From Halobacteriovoraceae bacterium (GTDB lineage Bacteria > Bdellovibrionota > Bacteriovoracia > Bacteriovoracales > Bacteriovoracaceae), in contig JBEIOQ010000001.1 in NCBI GenBank assembly GCA_040377495.1, positions 1 to 56,500 on the forward strand: 56,500 nt of DNA, written 5' to 3'. Under the pieces are notes generated by a model, which had not been told where the DNA came from, made no database searches, and worked only from the letters and a program-made list of their open reading frames with translations. Shown here piece after piece: positions 37,102 to 50,538 of the stretch. Every line of letters starts with the position of its first letter. Within the stretch, counting starts at the first letter, position 1. The translations under genes and the position numbers were made by a program.

Positions 37102-38574
37102 TTGTCCATGTCATCTGATAATAAACGCGCGATTTTAGCGGTAGTTCTTTCTGGTCTTATTCTCTTTGGATGGCAGCACTTTTTTGCTCCCAAAAACGTC
37201 GTAAGCAATACAGTCCCTGCGACTGAAACGGTGGCGGCAAACACTAACAATCCCGCTCCAATCACAGCACCGGCCACTGGAACAGTTGAGAAAATTGAAG
37301 CTCCAACTACTGCTCAGCTTTTGACTGATTACACAGTTAGAAATCAGCAAAATTCTTTTACTATTAATAACCAACTTCAAATCACGGCGGTAGCAAGCCC
37401 TAAAACGAGCTTTTCTTATATAGATACTGTGGGCTCACCTCAAGCATTCTCTCTTGAAGTAGAGAAAAATAACCTCTTCCATAAAATTTGGATCAATTTC
37501 ACTCAGTTAGATGAAAAAACACTAGAAGGAGCGAGCGACGAATTAGGTTTGAAGGTTAAATTGTGGTTAGAAGAAAATGGTAAATTAAACTACATTTTCA
37601 CCTCTACAAATGCTTATAAGTATAGAGTAGTTTTGAGTGCGACTAAAAAGGAATTAGATGGTGGACATCATCGTGAATTTACCGTTTTGGCCAAAGATCT
37701 TGAAAAGTTTGCTGTTGGAAAAAGTGATGAAGGTGAAGGCGAAATAAAGTGGCTTGGCATTGATTTTAATTTCCACCTTTTTTCTTTTATCTATAAAGAA
37801 AAGAAACTTTCTGTTTTTAATATAACAGAAGCTGGACAATTGACGGCCATGTTGGTGAATCCAACCACAACTCTTGAAGGTAGCTTTGTATTTGCTAAAA
37901 AAGACTACGATTTACTGACTAGTTTAGGAGATAATCTGAATCAAGGAATTGATTATGGAATGTGGGCTGTTTTTGCCATTCCTATTCTACGTGCTCTTCA
38001 GTTTTTCTATAAATTCTTCCCTAATTATGGGGTAGCGATCATTCTTCTTACTTTATTCATCCGACTTTTAACTTTTCCTCTTCAGTATAAGTCTTTTAAG
38101 AGTATGAAGAAGATGCAGGATCTCCAACCTGAATTGAATAAATTGAAAGAAAAATTTAAAGATGATCCTCAGCGTATGCAGAAAGAAACTATGGATCTTT
38201 TTAAGAAATCAGGTGCTAACCCGCTTGGTGGTTGTCTACCTTTGCTGTTACAAATGCCGATCTTTTTTGCTTTTTATAAAGTGTTGTTTAACTCTACTGA
38301 ACTAATGGGGGCCCCTTTCATGTTGTGGATTAAAGATCTATCGCATAAAGACCCTTTCTATGTTCTTCCTGTGTTAATGGCCGGATCAATGTTCTTACAA
38401 CAGAAGATGACTCCGTCACCTTCTGCCGATCCAACACAACAAAAAATTATGATGTTCATGCCACTTATTTTCGGTCTGATTATGAAGGATTTACCGTCAG
38501 GATTAACCCTTTATATCTTCGTTTCGACTATCATGGGGATTGGTCAACAATACTTCGTTTATAAAAGAACCTAA
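37102..38574 (+). CDS. yidC: Membrane protein insertase YidC
   Basis: 490 aa. It has an N-terminal TM helix, a periplasmic domain, and the Oxa1 core (PLQYKSFKSMKKMQDLQPEL...GANPLGGCLPLLLQMPIFFAFY). Confidence 0.95.
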   Translation: MSMSSDNKRAILAVVLSGLILFGWQHFFAPKNVVSNTVPATETVAANTNNPAPITAPATGTVEKIEAPTTAQLLTDYTVRNQQNSFTINNQLQITAVASPKTSFSYIDTVGSPQAFSLEVEKNNLFHKIWINFTQLDEKTLEGASDELGLKVKLWLEENGKLNYIFTSTNAYKYRVVLSATKKELDGGHHREFTVLAKDLEKFAVGKSDEGEGEIKWLGIDFNFHLFSFIYKEKKLSVFNITEAGQLTAMLVNPTTTLEGSFVFAKKDYDLLTSLGDNLNQGIDYGMWAVFAIPILRALQFFYKFFPNYGVAIILLTLFIRLLTFPLQYKSFKSMKKMQDLQPELNKLKEKFKDDPQRMQKETMDLFKKSGANPLGGCLPLLLQMPIFFAFYKVLFNSTELMGAPFMLWIKDLSHKDPFYVLPVLMAGSMFLQQKMTPSPSADPTQQKIMMFMPLIFGLIMKDLPSGLTLYIFVSTIMGIGQQYFVYKRT

Positions 38575-39965
38575 TGAACTTATTATTCAGTGATGGACCT
38601 ATTATCGCTTGCAGTACCAATGCTAACGCTAATAGTGCCATCGCTGTTATACGCCTTTCTGGCTTTGATTCTCTCGAACCATATCAGCCTTACTTTTCCA
38701 CCGATTTTAAAAAACTCAAACCACGCATGGCCACTTTGTCTGATCTTTCCGATGGAATGACCAAACTTGATTCAGTGGTTTTGACTTATTTTAAGGGACC
38801 CAAGTCCTACAATGGAGAAAATATTTTAGAACTTGCGGTGCACGGAAACCGTCTGAATGTTGAGAGAATTTTGACTCTTTTTGAGTCTAAAAAATTGGCC
38901 AGGTTCTCGGCTCCCGGAGAATTTACTTACCGTGCTCTAAAAAATTCAAAAATGAGCTTAAGCCAAGTGGAAGGCCTGGATCTGATGCTCAATGCTCAAT
39001 CAGAATTTGCTTTAGGCCAAGGTTTGTCTTTAATCAGTGGTGATTTAAACGATAGTTTTCAAAAATTATTTAATACTTATTTAAAATTGAAAACTAGTGT
39101 AGAGATGCATTTTGATTTTTTAGAAGACATGGGTGAAGAGCAAGCCAATAAACTTTTTCGTGAAAGTTTAGCTGATTTCTCCTCTCAAATTGGCAATTTG
39201 GCGAAAAGGGCTTCGACAGATAATTCCTCTTTAATGTCTCCTGAGATTGTTCTGGTAGGAGAAACTAATGCTGGGAAAAGTTCTCTTTTTAATCAATTTT
39301 TAGGATTTGATCGCTCGATTGTTTCCCCAATTAAAGGAACCACACGAGATTTTATTTCTGAGTACATTAAGCTTAAGGGAACAACCTACAAGCTGGTAGA
39401 TACCGCAGGTTTGCGAGCGAAAACCGATGATGAAATTGAGAAGATGGGTATGAAGTTGAGTCTAGAAAAGCTCACGAAGGCCTTTTTTAAAATTTTAGTG
39501 ATTAATCCCTTAGAAACTTTTTCTCCCTCAGCAGATTACTTAAAAATGAAATTTGATATGGTGGTATTTACTCACAAAGATGACCCAAGTTTTGATAAAG
39601 CTATGGTTGAATTTATGGCCAAGCATGGTTCTATAGAACCACTTAAAAATCTTGGTCCTATAGAACCAATCATGATTTCGACTCTTTCTGGTCCTATAGA
39701 ACCAAAACTAGAATCTCTTATTTCTGATAAATTTGCTCAATTATTAGCTAACTCACCGATATTACTAGAGAGACAACGTTTGGAGTTAAATAAACTGTAT
39801 TTAATTATTAGTGAATTCAACGAGTTATCTATTACTGAACCTGATATGGCAATTCTTTCGCATGAGCTCAATAATATTGGTCAAAGTCTCTCCGAATTGA
39901 TAGGTGTGATCGCACCCGACGATGTCTTGGACAATCTTTTCTCCAACTTCTGTATTGGAAAGTAG
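38574..39965 (+). CDS. mnmE: tRNA modification GTPase MnmE
   Basis: 463 aa. G1 is [13 protein letters not shown]3 is DTAGLR, and the C-terminal motif is CIGK. Its start overlaps the yidC stop. It contains three in-frame copies of a 15-bp repeat (see the repeat feature at 39627-39704). Confidence 0.93.
39627..39704 (+). repeat. Three copies of the 15-bp quasi-palindrome GGT(T/C)CTATAGAACCA inside mnmE
   Basis: The copies are GGTTCTATAGAACCA at 39627-39641, GGTCCTATAGAACCA at 39654-39668 and GGTCCTATAGAACCA at 39690-39704. Start-to-start spacings are 27 and 36 nt, so all three are in frame (G-S/P-I-E-P). The sequences between the copies are unrelated to each other. Confidence 0.9.
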
Positions 39966-39968
39966 ATT

Positions 39969-39984
39969 TGTTCCACGTGGAACA
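39969..39984. other. parS centromere-like site 1
   Basis: TGTTCCACGTGGAACA is a perfect 16-bp palindrome (18 bp with the flanking T/A). It matches the ParB-binding consensus TGTTNCACGTGAAACA at 15 of 16 positions. It lies in the 22-bp mnmE-mnmG gap. Confidence 0.85.
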
Positions 39985-39987
39985 ATT

Positions 39988-41841
39988 ATGACAATAATTT
40001 TCGATATCCTAGTTTTAGGTGGTGGCCATGCCGGCTTAGAAGCAGCTCATGCAGCAGCTCAGTTTGGTTTGGATGTCGCTCTGTTTGTCATGCCTGGAGT
40101 GAAGGTGGCTTCGGCTCCTTGTAACCCGGCCATTGGTGGAGTGGGTAAAGGGCAAGTGGTTCGCGAGCTGGATGCACTCGGTGGAGTGATGGGAAAGCTA
40201 GCTGACTTAGCTGGGATTCAGTACCGAGTCCTCAATGAGTCTAAAGGTTTCGCGGTTCAATCTAGCCGTGTACAAATAGATAAAGAAATCTATGCTGAGG
40301 AGGCCGAGAAATTGGTGGCCAGCATTTCTAATATCTTTCTAGTTAGAGAGAAAGTTCTTTCAGTGACTAAGGTTGAGAACTTATTTGAAGTGGTATCAAC
40401 CCAACGGTCCTATAGAACCAGAAAGGTCATCGTCACGACAGGAACTTTCCTGGGTGGAAAGATGCATACGGGTGCTCATCAAAGTATTGGTGGGCGAGTG
40501 GGAAAAGAGGCCAGTCCTCATCTAACCAGTCTTCTCTCCCAAGTGAAAACGGGCAAGAGTCGTTTTAAAACCGGAACACCTTCTCGTATCGCTCGAAGCT
40601 CGATTGACTATACTAAACTACAAGTTCAGCCCTCAGATCCTTCAACGAGAAACCTCCATTGTTTGCATGATGGACAGATTCGTTTCCAAAAACAATTGGA
40701 CTGCTACCTCACTTATACAAATGAAGATACTTTGGGGATTATTCGTGAGAACAAAGAAAAGTCTCCCATGTATAACGGACAGATCAATGGTGTAGGGGCA
40801 AGATATTGTCCGAGTATTGAAGATAAGGCCTTCCGCTATCCTGATAGAAATACTCACCATGTGTTCATCGAACCAGAAGGGATCGATGTAGAAACTATGT
40901 ATCCTAGCGGGGTTTCCTCTAGTTTGCCAGCTGATGTTCAAGAGGCTTTTCTAAAGACCATTCCGGGCTTAGAAAGCTGTGAAATCCTGGTTCCTGGTTA
41001 TGCTGTAGAATACGATGTGGTGGATACAACAACACTTGATCTTACCCTTGAATACAAAGATATTACTGGTCTCTACTTCGCCGGGCAGGTCAATGGAACT
41101 TCTGGCTATGAAGAGGCCGCAGGACAAGGATTGATTGCTGGATTGAACGCTAGTCTTAGTTTGCTTGGCCGTGAGAAATTGGTCTTGGATCGCCAAGAAT
41201 CTTATATCGGTGTGATGATTTCCGACCTCACCTTGAACACCAGAGATGAACCTTACCGTCTGTTCACCGCTCGTTCGGAAAACCGTCTTTATATCCGTGA
41301 GGATAATACCATCAACCGTATGGCCTCTTACCGTTTGTCTTTGGGTTTGAACGCCAAGCTTGATCAGTATTTAGAAAGTTTTATAGCAGAATATGATCTA
41401 CTGATGAAACTTTGCCGTGACATTACTTTTAGTTCCCAGTCCGAAATGATGTTGAAGTACCAGGATCCTGAGAACAAAAAAACCTTTCAGGCCAAGATCC
41501 CTTTGGCAGAACTGATGCGCCAATCTTGGATTAATCCGGTTGACGTTTTGGCCAAAGAACTAGCTGAGATGCATGTGAGTTTTTCTTCTGATGTGGTTCA
41601 GGCCGTAGCGATTAGCTTAAAATACGACGGATATATTAAAAAGTCTCAAGATCAATATGAGAAGATTAAGAAGCTTGATAATATGAAGCTAAACTGGGAA
41701 GAGATCACTAATTCTTCCAATATTTCTTTTGAGTGTAAGTCGCGAATTGCCAAGATCCGTCCAGAAACTTTTGGCCACTTAAAGCTGATTGAAGGAATTC
41801 GCCCCGCTACTTTAGCGATCATTGCCGGGAAACTTTATTAA
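39988..41841 (+). CDS. mnmG: tRNA uridine 5-carboxymethylaminomethyl modification enzyme MnmG (GidA)
   Basis: The FAD-binding N-terminus reads [20 protein letters not shown], and [11 protein letters not shown] is also present. I moved the start to the ATG at 39988, because the track start at 39922 overlaps mnmE and reads across parS. Confidence 0.95.
40406..40420 (+). repeat. Copy of the GGTCCTATAGAACCA motif inside mnmG
   Basis: This is an exact 15-mer. Here it is read in a different frame (..R-S-Y-R-T-R..) from the mnmE copies. Confidence 0.85.
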
Positions 41842-42482
41842 TGATCACAAGAGAATTTTCCGACGAACTATTTAGCATCTACTTCGGTGAACTGGAAGGT
41901 TTAAATTTAACTGCGATCCGTGAACCCACCGAGTTTTATCACAAACAAATTCTCGATTCGATTTATCCTTATGAGCAGTCTGAAACCTTCCGTGGTTCTA
42001 TAGGGGCACATCCTTATTATATAGATGTAGGATTTGGCGGAGGATTTCCTCTACTTCCTCTAGCAAAACTTCTCTCAGATAAAAAATGTGTGGGCATTGA
42101 TTCAAAAAATAAAAAGGTCGAAGCAGTAAAGTTAATTGCTAGCAAAGTTGGATTAGAAAACGTTCGACCTTATCATGCTCGTATTGAAGATGTGTTAATT
42201 GATCGTCCTGCGACTTTAACCTTTAAAGCTGTTGGCAGAATTTACGACATGCTAAACTTACTAAATTATTCAACGCCAATCGAAGTTTTTTTCTATAAGG
42301 GACCTAACGTTTACGAATTAGAAGAAATGGACTTTGCAAAAATTGGAAATAAGTGGGAAAGAATCGAAGAGAAGGAAATTCAAGTACCTAACACAGATAA
42401 ACGAATTTTATTAGGGTATAAAAGCAAAATTGTTCCACGTGGAACAGCTAAATACCTTGTCAAACTCTCTGACATTATTTAA
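41841..42482 (+). CDS. rsmG: 16S rRNA (guanine527-N7)-methyltransferase RsmG (GidB)
   Basis: 213 aa. The SAM-binding motif is IDVGFGGGFPLLPLA. It lies in the canonical position after mnmG. Confidence 0.88.
   Translation: MITREFSDELFSIYFGELEGLNLTAIREPTEFYHKQILDSIYPYEQSETFRGSIGAHPYYIDVGFGGGFPLLPLAKLLSDKKCVGIDSKNKKVEAVKLIASKVGLENVRPYHARIEDVLIDRPATLTFKAVGRIYDMLNLLNYSTPIEVFFYKGPNVYELEEMDFAKIGNKWERIEEKEIQVPNTDKRILLGYKSKIVPRGTAKYLVKLSDII
42431..42446. other. parS centromere-like site 2, inside the 3' end of rsmG
   Basis: TGTTCCACGTGGAACA is identical to site 1. In rsmG it encodes ..IVPRGT.. It lies 68 nt upstream of the parA ATG. Confidence 0.85.
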
Positions 42483-42513
42483 AAATTTCTCACGGACTTT
42501 CAGGAGAAATTCA

Positions 42514-43323
42514 ATGGCCAAAATTATTGCGATAGCAAACCAAAAAGGTGGCGTTGGTAAAACGACGACCTCAATTAACCTTGCCGCTGGTTTAGCAGTA
42601 GCTGAGAAAAAAACTCTACTATTAGATTTAGATCCTCAAGGTAACGCAAGTCTTGGTCTAGGTTTGGACAAAGCTAGCTTTGCTCAAAAAAATATTTATC
42701 ACGCTATTATTGGTGAAGAGAATATTGAAGAGGCCATTTATAAAACTGATTTACCTTATTTAGATATTTGTCCCTCTGACAATAACCTCACTGGTGCAGA
42801 AATTGAGCTAGTGGGTGCCTTTGCCCGCGAAACAAAGCTAAAGACTGCCCTAGAGTCCGTTATGGATCACTATGACTACATCATTATAGATTGCCCTCCT
42901 TCTTTAACTCTTTTAACAGTGAACGCTCTTACTGCAGCGCACAGTTATATTGTTCCAATGCAAACAGAATTTTTTGCAATGGAAGGACTTTCACAGTTAT
43001 TAAACACTGTTCGTCTTATCCGTCATTCCTTAAATCCGAGATTAGAATTAGAAGGTATTCTTCTGACTATGTTCGATGCTCGTAACAATCTTTCTAAGCA
43101 AGTGGCTTTTGAAATTAAAAAACACTTCAAAGACTCAGTATTAAAAACCATCATTCCAAGAAACGTGAAATTATCTGAGTCACCAAGCTTTGGTAAGCCA
43201 ATCATTCTTTATGATGTTAGCTCAAAAGGTAGTGAGGCTTATTTCTCATTAGCAAAAGAAGTCATCATTAATACAGATCCAAAATATTTAATTAATAAAC
43301 CATCGTCAGAGATGACTTTTTAA
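42514..43323 (+). CDS. parA: Chromosome partitioning ATPase ParA (Soj)
   Basis: The protein starts MAKIIAIANQKGGVGKTTTSINLA (deviant Walker A). An AGGAGA Shine-Dalgarno sequence lies 7 nt upstream of the ATG at 42514. The track start at 42430 is an artefactual extension through parS and rsmG. Confidence 0.93.
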   Translation: MAKIIAIANQKGGVGKTTTSINLAAGLAVAEKKTLLLDLDPQGNASLGLGLDKASFAQKNIYHAIIGEENIEEAIYKTDLPYLDICPSDNNLTGAEIELVGAFARETKLKTALESVMDHYDYIIIDCPPSLTLLTVNALTAAHSYIVPMQTEFFAMEGLSQLLNTVRLIRHSLNPRLELEGILLTMFDARNNLSKQVAFEIKKHFKDSVLKTIIPRNVKLSESPSFGKPIILYDVSSKGSEAYFSLAKEVIINTDPKYLINKPSSEMTF

Positions 43324-43334
43324 GCGGGGACTTT

Positions 43335-44225
43335 ATGGTACAAAAAACTGTTTTAGGTAAAGGTATTGCTTCTCTTATTCAATCAAGTCAGTCTGATTAT
43401 GGCAGTGAAAATAGAGCAAAAACTGAGCCGGCAATTAACATTATTAAAGGTGAGTCTTTATTAGTTCCCGTAGGAAAAATAAAAGCGAATCAATATCAAC
43501 CAAGAAGAATTTTTAAAGAAAAAGATATTGTTGAACTTGCAGAATCAATCAAGGAAAACGGCATCATTCAACCACTGATTGTAATCGAAAAAGGTAATGA
43601 ATTTGAATTAATTGCAGGTGAACGTCGTTTGAGAGCAGCAAAATTGGCTGGTCTTGAGCAAGTTCCTGTGGTGATCAAAAAAGCTACTGATCGCGAAAAA
43701 TTAGTCATGGCGATTATTGAAAACGTTCAACGTTCAGAGTTGAATTGTATAGAAGAAGCTTTAGCTTATTTCCAACTCATGGAAGATTTTAAATTAACCC
43801 AAGAAGAAGTGGCTAAAAAAATCGGGAAAGAGCGCTCAACTATTGCTAATTTTCTTCGTATCTTAAAACTTCCTCGCGATGTAATTGGTCTTTTAAAGGA
43901 AGAAAAACTTTCATTTGGGCACGCAAAGATTTTAGCGGCAGTAAAGGAAGCAGAACACGCAAAAAGACTGGCATTTCAAGTAGTAGAAGCAAACCTTTCT
44001 GTAAGAGAATTGGAAGTTCTCATTAATAAAAAACCAAAAACAGTCAAAGAAGAAACGAAAAAGAACTTCTTTACCGACAAACTTGATCCACTTAAAAATA
44101 AATTAGAGCAAAAAACTGGTTTTCATTTTAAACTAGCAGGTAAGAAGAACGGTGCAGGTGTTGTAACGATTAAGTTTAATAATGAAGCTGAATTTAACGA
44201 CATCTATGACTACTTAATGAAGTAA
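43335..44225 (+). CDS. parB: Chromosome partitioning protein ParB (Spo0J)
   Basis: 296 aa. The ParB box is LIAGERRLRAAKLAGL, and an HTH follows (LTQEEVAKKIGKERSTIANFLRIL). Confidence 0.95.
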   Translation: MVQKTVLGKGIASLIQSSQSDYGSENRAKTEPAINIIKGESLLVPVGKIKANQYQPRRIFKEKDIVELAESIKENGIIQPLIVIEKGNEFELIAGERRLRAAKLAGLEQVPVVIKKATDREKLVMAIIENVQRSELNCIEEALAYFQLMEDFKLTQEEVAKKIGKERSTIANFLRILKLPRDVIGLLKEEKLSFGHAKILAAVKEAEHAKRLAFQVVEANLSVRELEVLINKKPKTVKEETKKNFFTDKLDPLKNKLEQKTGFHFKLAGKKNGAGVVTIKFNNEAEFNDIYDYLMK

Positions 44226-44226
44226 T

Positions 44227-44565
44227 ATGCAAGATAGAAAAGGTGAAATTTCAGCGATTATTGAGGAAGGTTGCAAATTTGATGGCAACCTTTCCTTTAA
44301 TGGCGTGGTGCGAATCGCTGGTCAGGTTAATGGTAATATTTTTTCTAATGACACACTGATCATATCTGAAGGTGCATTGATTAACGCCGATATCAATGCC
44401 AACGTCATCCTGATATCAGGAAATGTGAAAGGTAACTTGAAGGCCACTTCTCGCGTGGAAATTCGCAAGCCTGCTCGCTTTGAGGGAACGATCACAGCAC
44501 CAAGTCTTATTGTGGAAGAGGGAGTCATTTTCCATGGTGTGACAAAAATGAAAGAATTAAACTAA
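44227..44565 (+). CDS. Bactofilin
   Basis: 112 aa. It has a beta-helical DUF583-type repeat pattern (KFDGNLSFNGVVRIAGQVNGNIFSNDTLIISEGALINADINANVILISGNVKGNL...). It starts 1 nt after the parB stop. Confidence 0.88.
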   Translation: MQDRKGEISAIIEEGCKFDGNLSFNGVVRIAGQVNGNIFSNDTLIISEGALINADINANVILISGNVKGNLKATSRVEIRKPARFEGTITAPSLIVEEGVIFHGVTKMKELN

Positions 44566-50486: not shown

Positions 50487-50487
50487 T

Positions 50488-50538
50488 GGTCCCATAGGAC
50501 CGTGATGACCTCTGGGTAGTCATGGTCCTATAGAACCA
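50488..50538 (+). repeat. Cluster of small palindromes directly after atpC, including one exact GGTCCTATAGAACCA copy
   Basis: The cluster has three elements: the variant GGTCCCATAGGACC (50488-50501), a small ATGAC..GTCAT hairpin (about 50505-50523), and the exact 15-mer GGTCCTATAGAACCA (50524-50538). Confidence 0.85.

Follow-up and report, generated by a model that had tools for sequence, protein, structure and literature searches.

The palindromic sites of mnmE and their neighbourhood

The window analysed here comprises 56,500 nucleotides of a Halobacteriovoraceae bacterium (Bdellovibrionota, Bacteriovoracaceae), taken from the start of contig JBEIOQ010000001.1 of assembly GCA_040377495.1, a source assembly (G000) of 2.17 Mb in 155 contigs which is about 75% complete. 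Within it, the gene mnmE carries three copies of a short palindromic word, of which GGTTCTATAGAACCA begins at 39627 and GGTCCTATAGAACCA at 39654 and 39690. The first-pass annotation, made from the letters alone, had described three in-frame copies reading GSIEP, GPIEP and GPIEP, the first of them with a perfect 14-bp palindrome inside, and inspection of the window letters, of the frame of the MnmE open reading frame (ORF) and of the peptides upholds this description. Since a T and an A flank every copy, the repeated unit is a 16-bp palindrome, TGGTYCTATAGRACCA, whose copies follow each other at 27 and 36 bp, with unrelated spacers of 11 and 20 nt between them. When up to two mismatches are allowed, the window contains 13 strand-hits of GGTYCTATAGAACC, where 0.46 would be expected, and none of 100 shuffles contains as many. 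The three copies are predicted to be binding sites for a dimeric DNA-binding protein, and would be members of a second family of centromere-like sites, one peculiar to Bacteriovoracaceae, whose word shares 10 of its 16 bases with parS.

The exact word GGTYCTATAGRACC occurs five times in the whole source assembly, always inside the window, and when mismatches are allowed seven members are found, starting at 39626, 39653, 39689, 40405, 41993, 50487 and 50523 (Table 1), of which only the three in mnmE had been noticed in the first annotation. The seven span one 11-kb stretch (mnmE, mnmG, rsmG, after atpC) around parAB, at 3.5-14.4 kb from dnaA, and a search of the whole assembly gave no dispersed copies outside this cluster. 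The gene order, according to Pfam annotation, is gyrA-gyrB-recF-dnaN-dnaA, rnpA-yidC-mnmE-mnmG-rsmG-parA-parB-bactofilin-atp operon, which is that of an origin/centromere neighbourhood. The canonical parS, TGTTCCACGTGGAACA, is present in perfect form only twice in the assembly, at 39969 and 42431, both within the same 11-kb stretch. As the genuine parS sites stand separately, the motif is therefore not parS but a second palindrome family, interleaved with the first. Moreover, in a census of the repeated palindromes of the assembly it was the only GC-balanced word to be both repeated and clustered.

As regards orientation, the four asymmetric copies (39653, 39689, 40405 and 50523) all have the C-half first on the + strand, the intergenic copy included. 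This shared orientation is not forced by coding constraints, and gene conversion between the copies is possibly behind it.

Table 1. Sites, genes and candidate reader in the source genome; positions are those of the window unless a locus is named
Feature	Position	Strand	Remarks
Site 1, TGGTTCTATAGAACCA	39626..39641	none	perfect 16-bp palindrome; GSIEP, MnmE residues 352-356
Site 2, TGGTCCTATAGAACCA	39653..39668	none	GPIEP, MnmE residues 361-365
Site 3, TGGTCCTATAGAACCA	39689..39704	none	GPIEP, MnmE residues 373-377; on the G-x-G-[IV]-[DE]-x-L position after G5
mnmE	38574..39965	+	463 aa, host of the array; from ORF, 1xzp alignment and model
mnmG site, CGGTCCTATAGAACCA	40405..40420	none	other open frame, R-S-Y-R-T
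rsmG hybrid A/B site, TGGTTCTATAGGGGCA	41993..42008	none	right half of the TGCCCCTA type
Intergenic site, TGGTCCCATAGGACCG	50487..50502	none	directly after the atpC stop
Intergenic site, TGGTCCTATAGAACCA	50523..50538	none	36 bp after the 50487 site
Canonical parS, TGTTCCACGTGGAACA	39969..39984	none	mnmE/mnmG junction; position conserved across the phylum
Second canonical parS, TGTTCCACGTGGAACA	42431..42446	none	rsmG 3' end, just upstream of parA
parA (ParA1)	42430..43323	+	ORF as listed; true start probably further downstream
parB (ParB1)	43335..44225	+	specificity positions R-F-K-G, parS-binding class
Bactofilin gene	44227..44565	+	fused to parAB
ParB2	1009..1890 of L002, contig C5	-
ParA2	1918..2766 of L002, contig C5	-

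Selection on the word, array dynamics and MnmE as host

The codons of 69 pentapeptides of the form G[PS][IM][GE][P/A] were tabulated from 18 genera, whose MnmE proteins are about 35-60% identical to that of the window. They are nearly fixed as GGT, CCT/TCT, ATA, GAA/GGA and CCA: Gly1 is encoded by GGT in 65 of 66 cases, Ser2 by TCT in 18 of 18, Pro2 by CCT in 47 of 51, Ile3 by ATA in 45 of 49, Glu4 by GAA in 22 of 22 and Pro5 by CCA in 44 of 52, and a T stands directly before the unit in 66 of the 69. The residues themselves vary (P/S, I/M, G/E, P/A). Among 206 sites sorted by frame, 165 are read as x-GPIEP-x, 18 are read in the other open frame (R/W-S/F/P-Y-R-T, as in mnmG) and 27 are not covered by any ORF of 150 aa or more, with four sites that fall in two such ORFs being counted twice; none is read in the third frame, where the central TAG is a stop. 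Selection thus acts on the nucleotide word, since synonymous codons are fixed while residues vary, since the word is found in two frames and between genes, and since the 16-mers remain intact where spacers have diverged. This had been proposed in the first-pass annotation, with the protein merely tolerating the motif, together with the remark that different codons for the same peptides in orthologues would speak for conservation of the protein instead; in fact, the orthologues use the same codons for similar peptides.

Maps of the array, drawn for 20 loci and then for 64 named loci, revealed that most Bacteriovoracaceae have an in-frame array in the same part of mnmE, the copy number among relatives, about which the earlier annotation had asked, varying from 1 to about 14. 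Two types of MnmE can be distinguished. In the compact type (455-457 aa; B. stolpii and Peredibacter types) single sites occupy conserved spots, at mnmE +131/137, yidC about -1290, and mnmG about +1815 and about +4870, while in the expanded type (about 485-595 aa; Halobacteriovorax types and the lineage of the window) the array lies in the 3' part of mnmE and has 3 to 12 copies, or about 14 in G019 when degenerate ones are counted. Across many genera of the compact clade (e.g. L081 of Peredibacter, with mnmE +137 and yidC -1287) the same codon positions of yidC, of the 5' part of mnmE and of mnmG are involved, these single sites being ancient and fixed in place, in contrast to the 3' array with its rapid changes. 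The mnmG spot of the site at 40405 is also occupied in G001, G006, G014 and many compact-MnmE genomes, and the parB-bactofilin spacer is a second hot spot of the motif in relatives.

Within mnmE the spacings are always multiples of three (24, 27, 30, 36 and so on), while those in the parB-bactofilin spacer (22, 23, 26, 31, 34) are not. Locus L113 holds 8 units of 24 bp and L131 holds 12 of 27 bp, and their spacers, which are alike as well, point to tandem duplication of recent date; the window, L077 and L119 combine intact 16-mers with unrelated spacers. Furthermore, copy number changes inside one genus (G010 versus G152). Taken together, alike and diverged spacers and changing copy number lead to the conclusion that the arrays grow and shrink by slippage or unequal exchange of units, selection holding only the 16-mer once a unit has been duplicated. 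The earlier statement that the copies do not derive from tandem duplication of a longer unit therefore describes the source genome, where spacers are unrelated, but not its relatives with 24- and 27-bp tandem units, and the array of the window is probably an old duplication with drifted spacers. The insertion mechanism which had been put forward as another possibility finds no support, since the motif is not dispersed and the word is confined to the origin/parAB neighbourhood.

The host protein aligns with T. maritima MnmE (1xzp) over residues 10-463 with E = 3.6e-53, and possesses the N-terminal domain, the helical domain, G1-G4 of the G domain and the C-terminal CxGK (...FCIGK). In this alignment copies 1 and 2 lie between G4 (THKD) and G5 (STLSG), and copy 3 falls on the 'GEGLEKL' after G5, a placement of copy 3 which had been anticipated from the letters. 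The G4 motif itself is THKD (39562-39573, residues 330-333) and not the usual NKxD, most relatives having [TS]H.D. An AlphaFold2 model based on an alignment of 37 sequences reached a mean predicted local distance difference test (pLDDT) score of 81.8; its only long internal low-confidence stretch without structure, 354-375, lies within the array-encoded residues 352-377, low pLDDT here perhaps partly reflecting an unalignable region, and is placed between the helix after G4 and the last helix of the G domain. The stretch of copies 1-3 is thus modelled as a low-confidence coil, in line with the surface loops which had been expected. On the basis of model and alignment, the array-encoded insert is a tolerated surface segment of the G domain.

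Distribution of the sites and their candidate reader

The named loci of Bacteriovoracaceae include those of Bacteriovorax stolpii, Peredibacter and Halobacteriovorax. In a first sample, the exact motif was found in 22 of 24 other Bacteriovoracaceae genera and in 0 of 16 outgroup genomes, and G020 and G023, which seemed to lack it, have variant copies. In a phylum sample of 200 genomes (35 Bacteriovoracaceae and 165 other Bdellovibrionota), all 35 family members have it, with 1-8 exact copies always in a single cluster, against 5 of the 165 others, where only singletons at the level of the scrambled control were seen. The motif stands no further than 6 kb from mnmE, on either side, in 63 of the 64 named loci. 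It is a Bacteriovoracaceae-specific site family, and no description of a second site family in Bacteriovoracaceae was found in the searchable literature. The sister family in the same order is represented in the sample by G025 alone, which has equal origin synteny but no motif. This reduced 0.9-Mb genome (L143) keeps the order dnaA, yidC-mnmE-mnmG-rsmG-parA-parB-atp, and its 20-kb region gave no parS with up to two mismatches, no motif and no bactofilin hit.

Canonical parS with up to one mismatch persists at two phylum-conserved positions, the mnmE/mnmG junction and the rsmG 3' end, and its coexistence with the motif is the rule. A replacement of parS by the new word, suggested by exact counts, was discarded, given that parS at this tolerance persists almost everywhere at its ancestral positions. 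Array size and number of exact parS were related with rho -0.28 (p 0.09), which is not significant, the genomes moreover being kin. A particular arrangement was seen in G013 (L024/L025), whose parA-parB-bactofilin unit is on a different contig from dnaA-yidC-mnmE and has neither motif nor parS within 9 kb, while the motif array remains with mnmE, which is no longer directly followed by mnmG. Contigs C4, C9 and C11 of the same genome each contain a parS-like pair, TGTTCCACGTGGAATT and TGTTA[GC]ACGTGAAATA, exactly 4173 bp apart, these pairs being a repeated element.

The composition of the half-sites is informative as to what may read them. Among A/A sites, in which both halves are TGGTYCTA, 152 of 190 are asymmetric at positions 5/12, the same positions which are free (N) in the parS consensus, and in about 170 others an A half is joined to a B half, [TC]GCCCC[CT][AG], which recurs but is not complementary to it. 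Such A/B hybrids include TGGTTCTATAGGGGCA, translated as GSIGA, and TGCCCCTATAGAACCA, translated as APIEP. No compensatory changes were found among the sites compared, and specific bases, the central TATA included, are conserved. This pattern fits two half-sites being read independently by a protein dimer. Hybrid sites (TGCCCC[CT]A + TGGTYCTA) dominate the arrays of some genera, for instance with 12 x TGGTTCTATAGGGGCA, and were recorded at L131 (3646-3958), L022 (G011), L032 (G023), L033 (G020) and in the rsmG site of the window; they may be weaker sites, decayed ones or sites with a specificity of their own.

A candidate for this dimer is a second ParB. The specificity of ParB-family proteins is set by positions 173, 179, 184 and 201 in Caulobacter ParB numbering, parS-only variants needing R173 and a small residue at 201, while K184 is permissive and the RTKG variant promiscuous (Jalal et al. 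2020, PMC7383237). ParB1 has R-F-K-G in all Bacteriovoracaceae, compared with R-x-K-G in most outgroups, and its F179 and GHAK/GHxK changes are common to G025, which has neither ParB2 nor the motif; judged by these residues, ParB1 would still be in the parS class. ParB2, of about 300 aa, is 28-33% identical to ParB1 and keeps the GERRYRA box (the GERRxRA motif of ParB CTPases), with K-S-K-Y at the specificity positions, a lost GHAR box and a recognition helix, GISKSEVHRSL, which is almost invariant in 21 genera. By the rules of Jalal et al. 2020 (PMC7383237), K-S-K-Y and the loss of the GHAR box mean that it should not read parS. In the same 200 genomes as the motif, the ParA2-ParB2 pair was present in 35 of 35 Bacteriovoracaceae and in 0 of 165 other Bdellovibrionota. 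Its genes lie in a housekeeping locus of conserved synteny, 260-420 kb away from the origin sites, the array being adjacent to parAB1. No conserved palindrome near parAB2 was found in 21 loci, no other repeated, clustered and GC-balanced palindrome was found in the census of the source assembly, and no plasmid relative of ParB2 with a known centromere was closer than about 37% identity. Since ParB2 has a fixed new specificity without another visible target, and the motif has no other visible reader, ParB2 is the candidate reader of the sites, with odds that come close to even.

Two further leads on ParB2 were abandoned. The protein of G132, which had seemed to contain stops and to offer a natural knock-out, is intact over residues 1-232 with a shorter C-terminus and stands beside a 6-copy array, so that it is uninformative, and an apparent link of ParB2 residue 185 (M or L) with B-type half-sites was confounded by clade and not used.

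A proposed second centromere-like family: weighing and comparison

The best explanation as a whole, a second centromere-like site family with ParB2 as its most probable reader, is given a probability of roughly 0.5. The new sites cluster within a few kb around parAB beside the origin, interleaved with the ancestral parS, and chromosomal ParB2, with its own ParA2, would load there, giving the one centromere region a second partition complex. In such a gene-dense region the sites would have been forced into genes, the G4-G5 surface segment of the MnmE G domain being one that tolerates them, and the array grows and shrinks by slippage or unequal exchange of in-frame 24-/27-bp units, the outcome being a hypervariable, disordered run of G-[PS]-[IM]-[GE]-[PA] peptides. 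Taken alone, a centromere function of the sites appears rather probable, while two complete ParABS systems on one centromere, with ParB1 at the two ancestral parS and ParB2/ParA2 at an adjacent, rapidly evolving array, can be advanced only tentatively. Several points weigh against this explanation. The co-distribution of ParB2 and motif is a correlation only, because both are family synapomorphies and amount to one evolutionary event; parAB2 is 260-420 kb away, though par operons usually adjoin their centromere; B-type half-sites are frequent and are left unexplained; in several genomes 1-2 mismatches have crept into canonical parS, a decay that would be understandable if the new sites served ParB1; and ParB1, with its permissive K184 and a lineage-specific F179, might read both site types.

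This last idea, in which the sites are a second parS class read by a ParB1 of relaxed specificity and ParB2 does something else, is unlikely, even though the sites surround parAB1 and interleave with canonical parS, and though the GHAK change, the parS decay in several large-array genomes and the weak negative trend of array size against exact parS number go in its direction. R173 and G201, which define the parS-specific class, are kept in all family members and outgroups; K184 is also found in outgroups without the motif; G025 has F179/GHGK yet lacks the motif; the core differs at 3 of 7 half-site positions (CTA vs CAC; G vs T at position 3); the trend lacks significance among related genomes; and G013 retains its array at mnmE despite the relocation of parAB1. 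It is likewise improbable that the sites dock a protein other than a ParB (an origin-domain organiser, an SMC/condensin loader or a transcription factor), ParB2 being unrelated. No physical tie binds ParB2 to the sites and 16-bp palindromes are typical of many helix-turn-helix dimers, but the sites are built like parS (16 bp, TG...CA ends, free positions 5/12, 10/16 identity), as many as 12-14 copies within a coding region resemble a centromere more than an operator, and a conserved ParB2 with an invariant recognition helix would be left without a detectable site family.

Were the palindromes RNA hairpins for stability or termination, or DNA cruciforms, the folding of the sense RNA 39612-39718, better than that of shuffles (z -3.3), and the position of a site pair where the atp terminator is expected would be accounted for. 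Nevertheless, the fold consists of copies 1 and 2 pairing with each other, as repeated palindromes inevitably do; one strand carries a C.A mismatch in 80% of A/A sites, A/B hybrids lack self-complementarity, compensatory changes are missing while the 'loop' TATA is conserved, the word is limited to the origin region instead of operon ends genome-wide, and no Rfam family matched, all of which makes this very improbable. Protein-level selection, with a G-P-I-E/G-P linker needed by MnmE and the palindrome as a by-product of codon choice, is effectively refuted: the mnmE copies do share one frame and related pentapeptides do recur in orthologues, but it is the synonymous positions that are fixed (ATA for Ile, TCT for Ser) and the residues that vary, the word is read R-S-Y-R-T in mnmG and is intergenic after atpC and between parB and bactofilin, compact-clade and outgroup MnmE have no insert, and the array-encoded stretch is modelled as disordered. 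Equally hard to credit are repeated in-frame insertions of a miniature element, mobile or selfish and palindromic, comparable to the Rickettsia palindromic elements (RPE). Every copy in every genome lies within one origin-proximal cluster, different genera have their sites at the same places in yidC, mnmE and mnmG and behind parB, and there are neither target-site duplications nor any element beyond the 16-mer; the variation of copy number between close relatives, which together with the residues added to a conserved protein would suit such an element, is explained by slippage of tandem units. A genome-wide dispersed repeat (HIP1-like, mobile, or like repetitive extragenic palindromes (REP), RPE or miniature inverted-repeat transposable elements (MITE)) was ruled out, as the copies are all in one cluster, in relatives likewise.

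Comparison with known systems helps to place the second centromere-like family. In Bacillus subtilis, parS is found inside the spo0J coding sequence. Like parS, the new word is palindromic over 16 bp, has TG...CA at its ends, leaves positions 5/12 free, clusters in a few to many copies around origin and parAB (near oriC/parAB in the source genome and in 35 of 35 family genomes) and is tolerated inside coding sequences. Unlike parS, whose canonical chromosomal consensus is TGTTNCACGTGNAACA (Livny et al. 2007), it has the core CTATAG instead of CACGTG and G instead of T at position 3, so that in the best alignment, TGGTCCTATAGGACCA against TGTTCCACGTGGAACA, 6 of 16 positions differ; furthermore, it stands beside genuine parS in the same cluster, can be repeated in tandem and in frame up to 12-14 times within one gene, and is restricted to one family. 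The Noc system of Firmicutes (PMC7383237) offers a parallel, in that a ParB paralogue with changed specificity would read a parS-derived palindrome, ParB2 and ParB1 differing at the same four positions (K-S-K-Y vs R-F-K-G). However, Noc-binding sites are spread over the chromosome and Noc works without ParA, whereas here the sites are origin-confined and ParB2 has ParA2; ParB2 scored 95.7 bits with the Noc model TIGR04285, whose cut-off is 315, and is not Noc. In the multi-replicon Burkholderiales, Bsr-type ParB/parS systems (PMC5450999) reportedly comprise several ParAB pairs per cell, each with its own palindromic centromere word; each of them serves its own replicon, while here both families are side by side on one chromosome, 260-420 kb from parAB2.

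As to array structure, head-to-tail units with one inverted repeat each are found at L113 and L131. The sopC centromere of F consists of 12 units of 43 bp with a SopB-binding inverted repeat in each, and such plasmid centromeres resemble the arrays in their short head-to-tail units with one ParB-family palindrome and in copy number changing by the unit; they differ in being non-coding and plasmid-borne with a 43-bp unit, instead of 24 or 27 bp in frame and translated in MnmE. The Rickettsia palindromic elements, which are dispersed, selfish and of 100-150 bp, are reportedly inserted in frame in genes (Ogata et al. 2000). The likeness lies in palindromic DNA tolerated within ORFs as an extra surface peptide, the difference in a 16-bp word which is confined to the centromere region with conserved positions.

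If two ParABS systems indeed shared one centromere, these filament-forming, multiple-fission predators would gain a second, separately controllable handle on each origin. If the sites are what they seem, nature would here provide an example of a ParB-type centromere word newly evolved next to its predecessor on one chromosome, with the candidate reader surviving as a paralogue and dozens of genera as evolutionary snapshots, a counterpart to the ParB-to-Noc specificity switch reconstructed in the laboratory. In addition, the array is an unusually clean instance of overlapping codes, where up to about 14 sites in a conserved enzyme fix the Gly, Pro, Ser, Ile and Glu codons and make the length of MnmE hypervariable. 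For cultured Halobacteriovorax, Peredibacter and Bacteriovorax it yields a testable hypothesis on origin segregation in non-binary division, and for annotators it means that the odd low-complexity insert of MnmE is a DNA feature.

Apart from the site family, the word GGCTCCGTAAGGAGCC, with a GC-rich stem and a GTAA loop, occurs three times in the source assembly (C20:348, C21:56 and C150:8514) and is probably a small structured-RNA or terminator hairpin.

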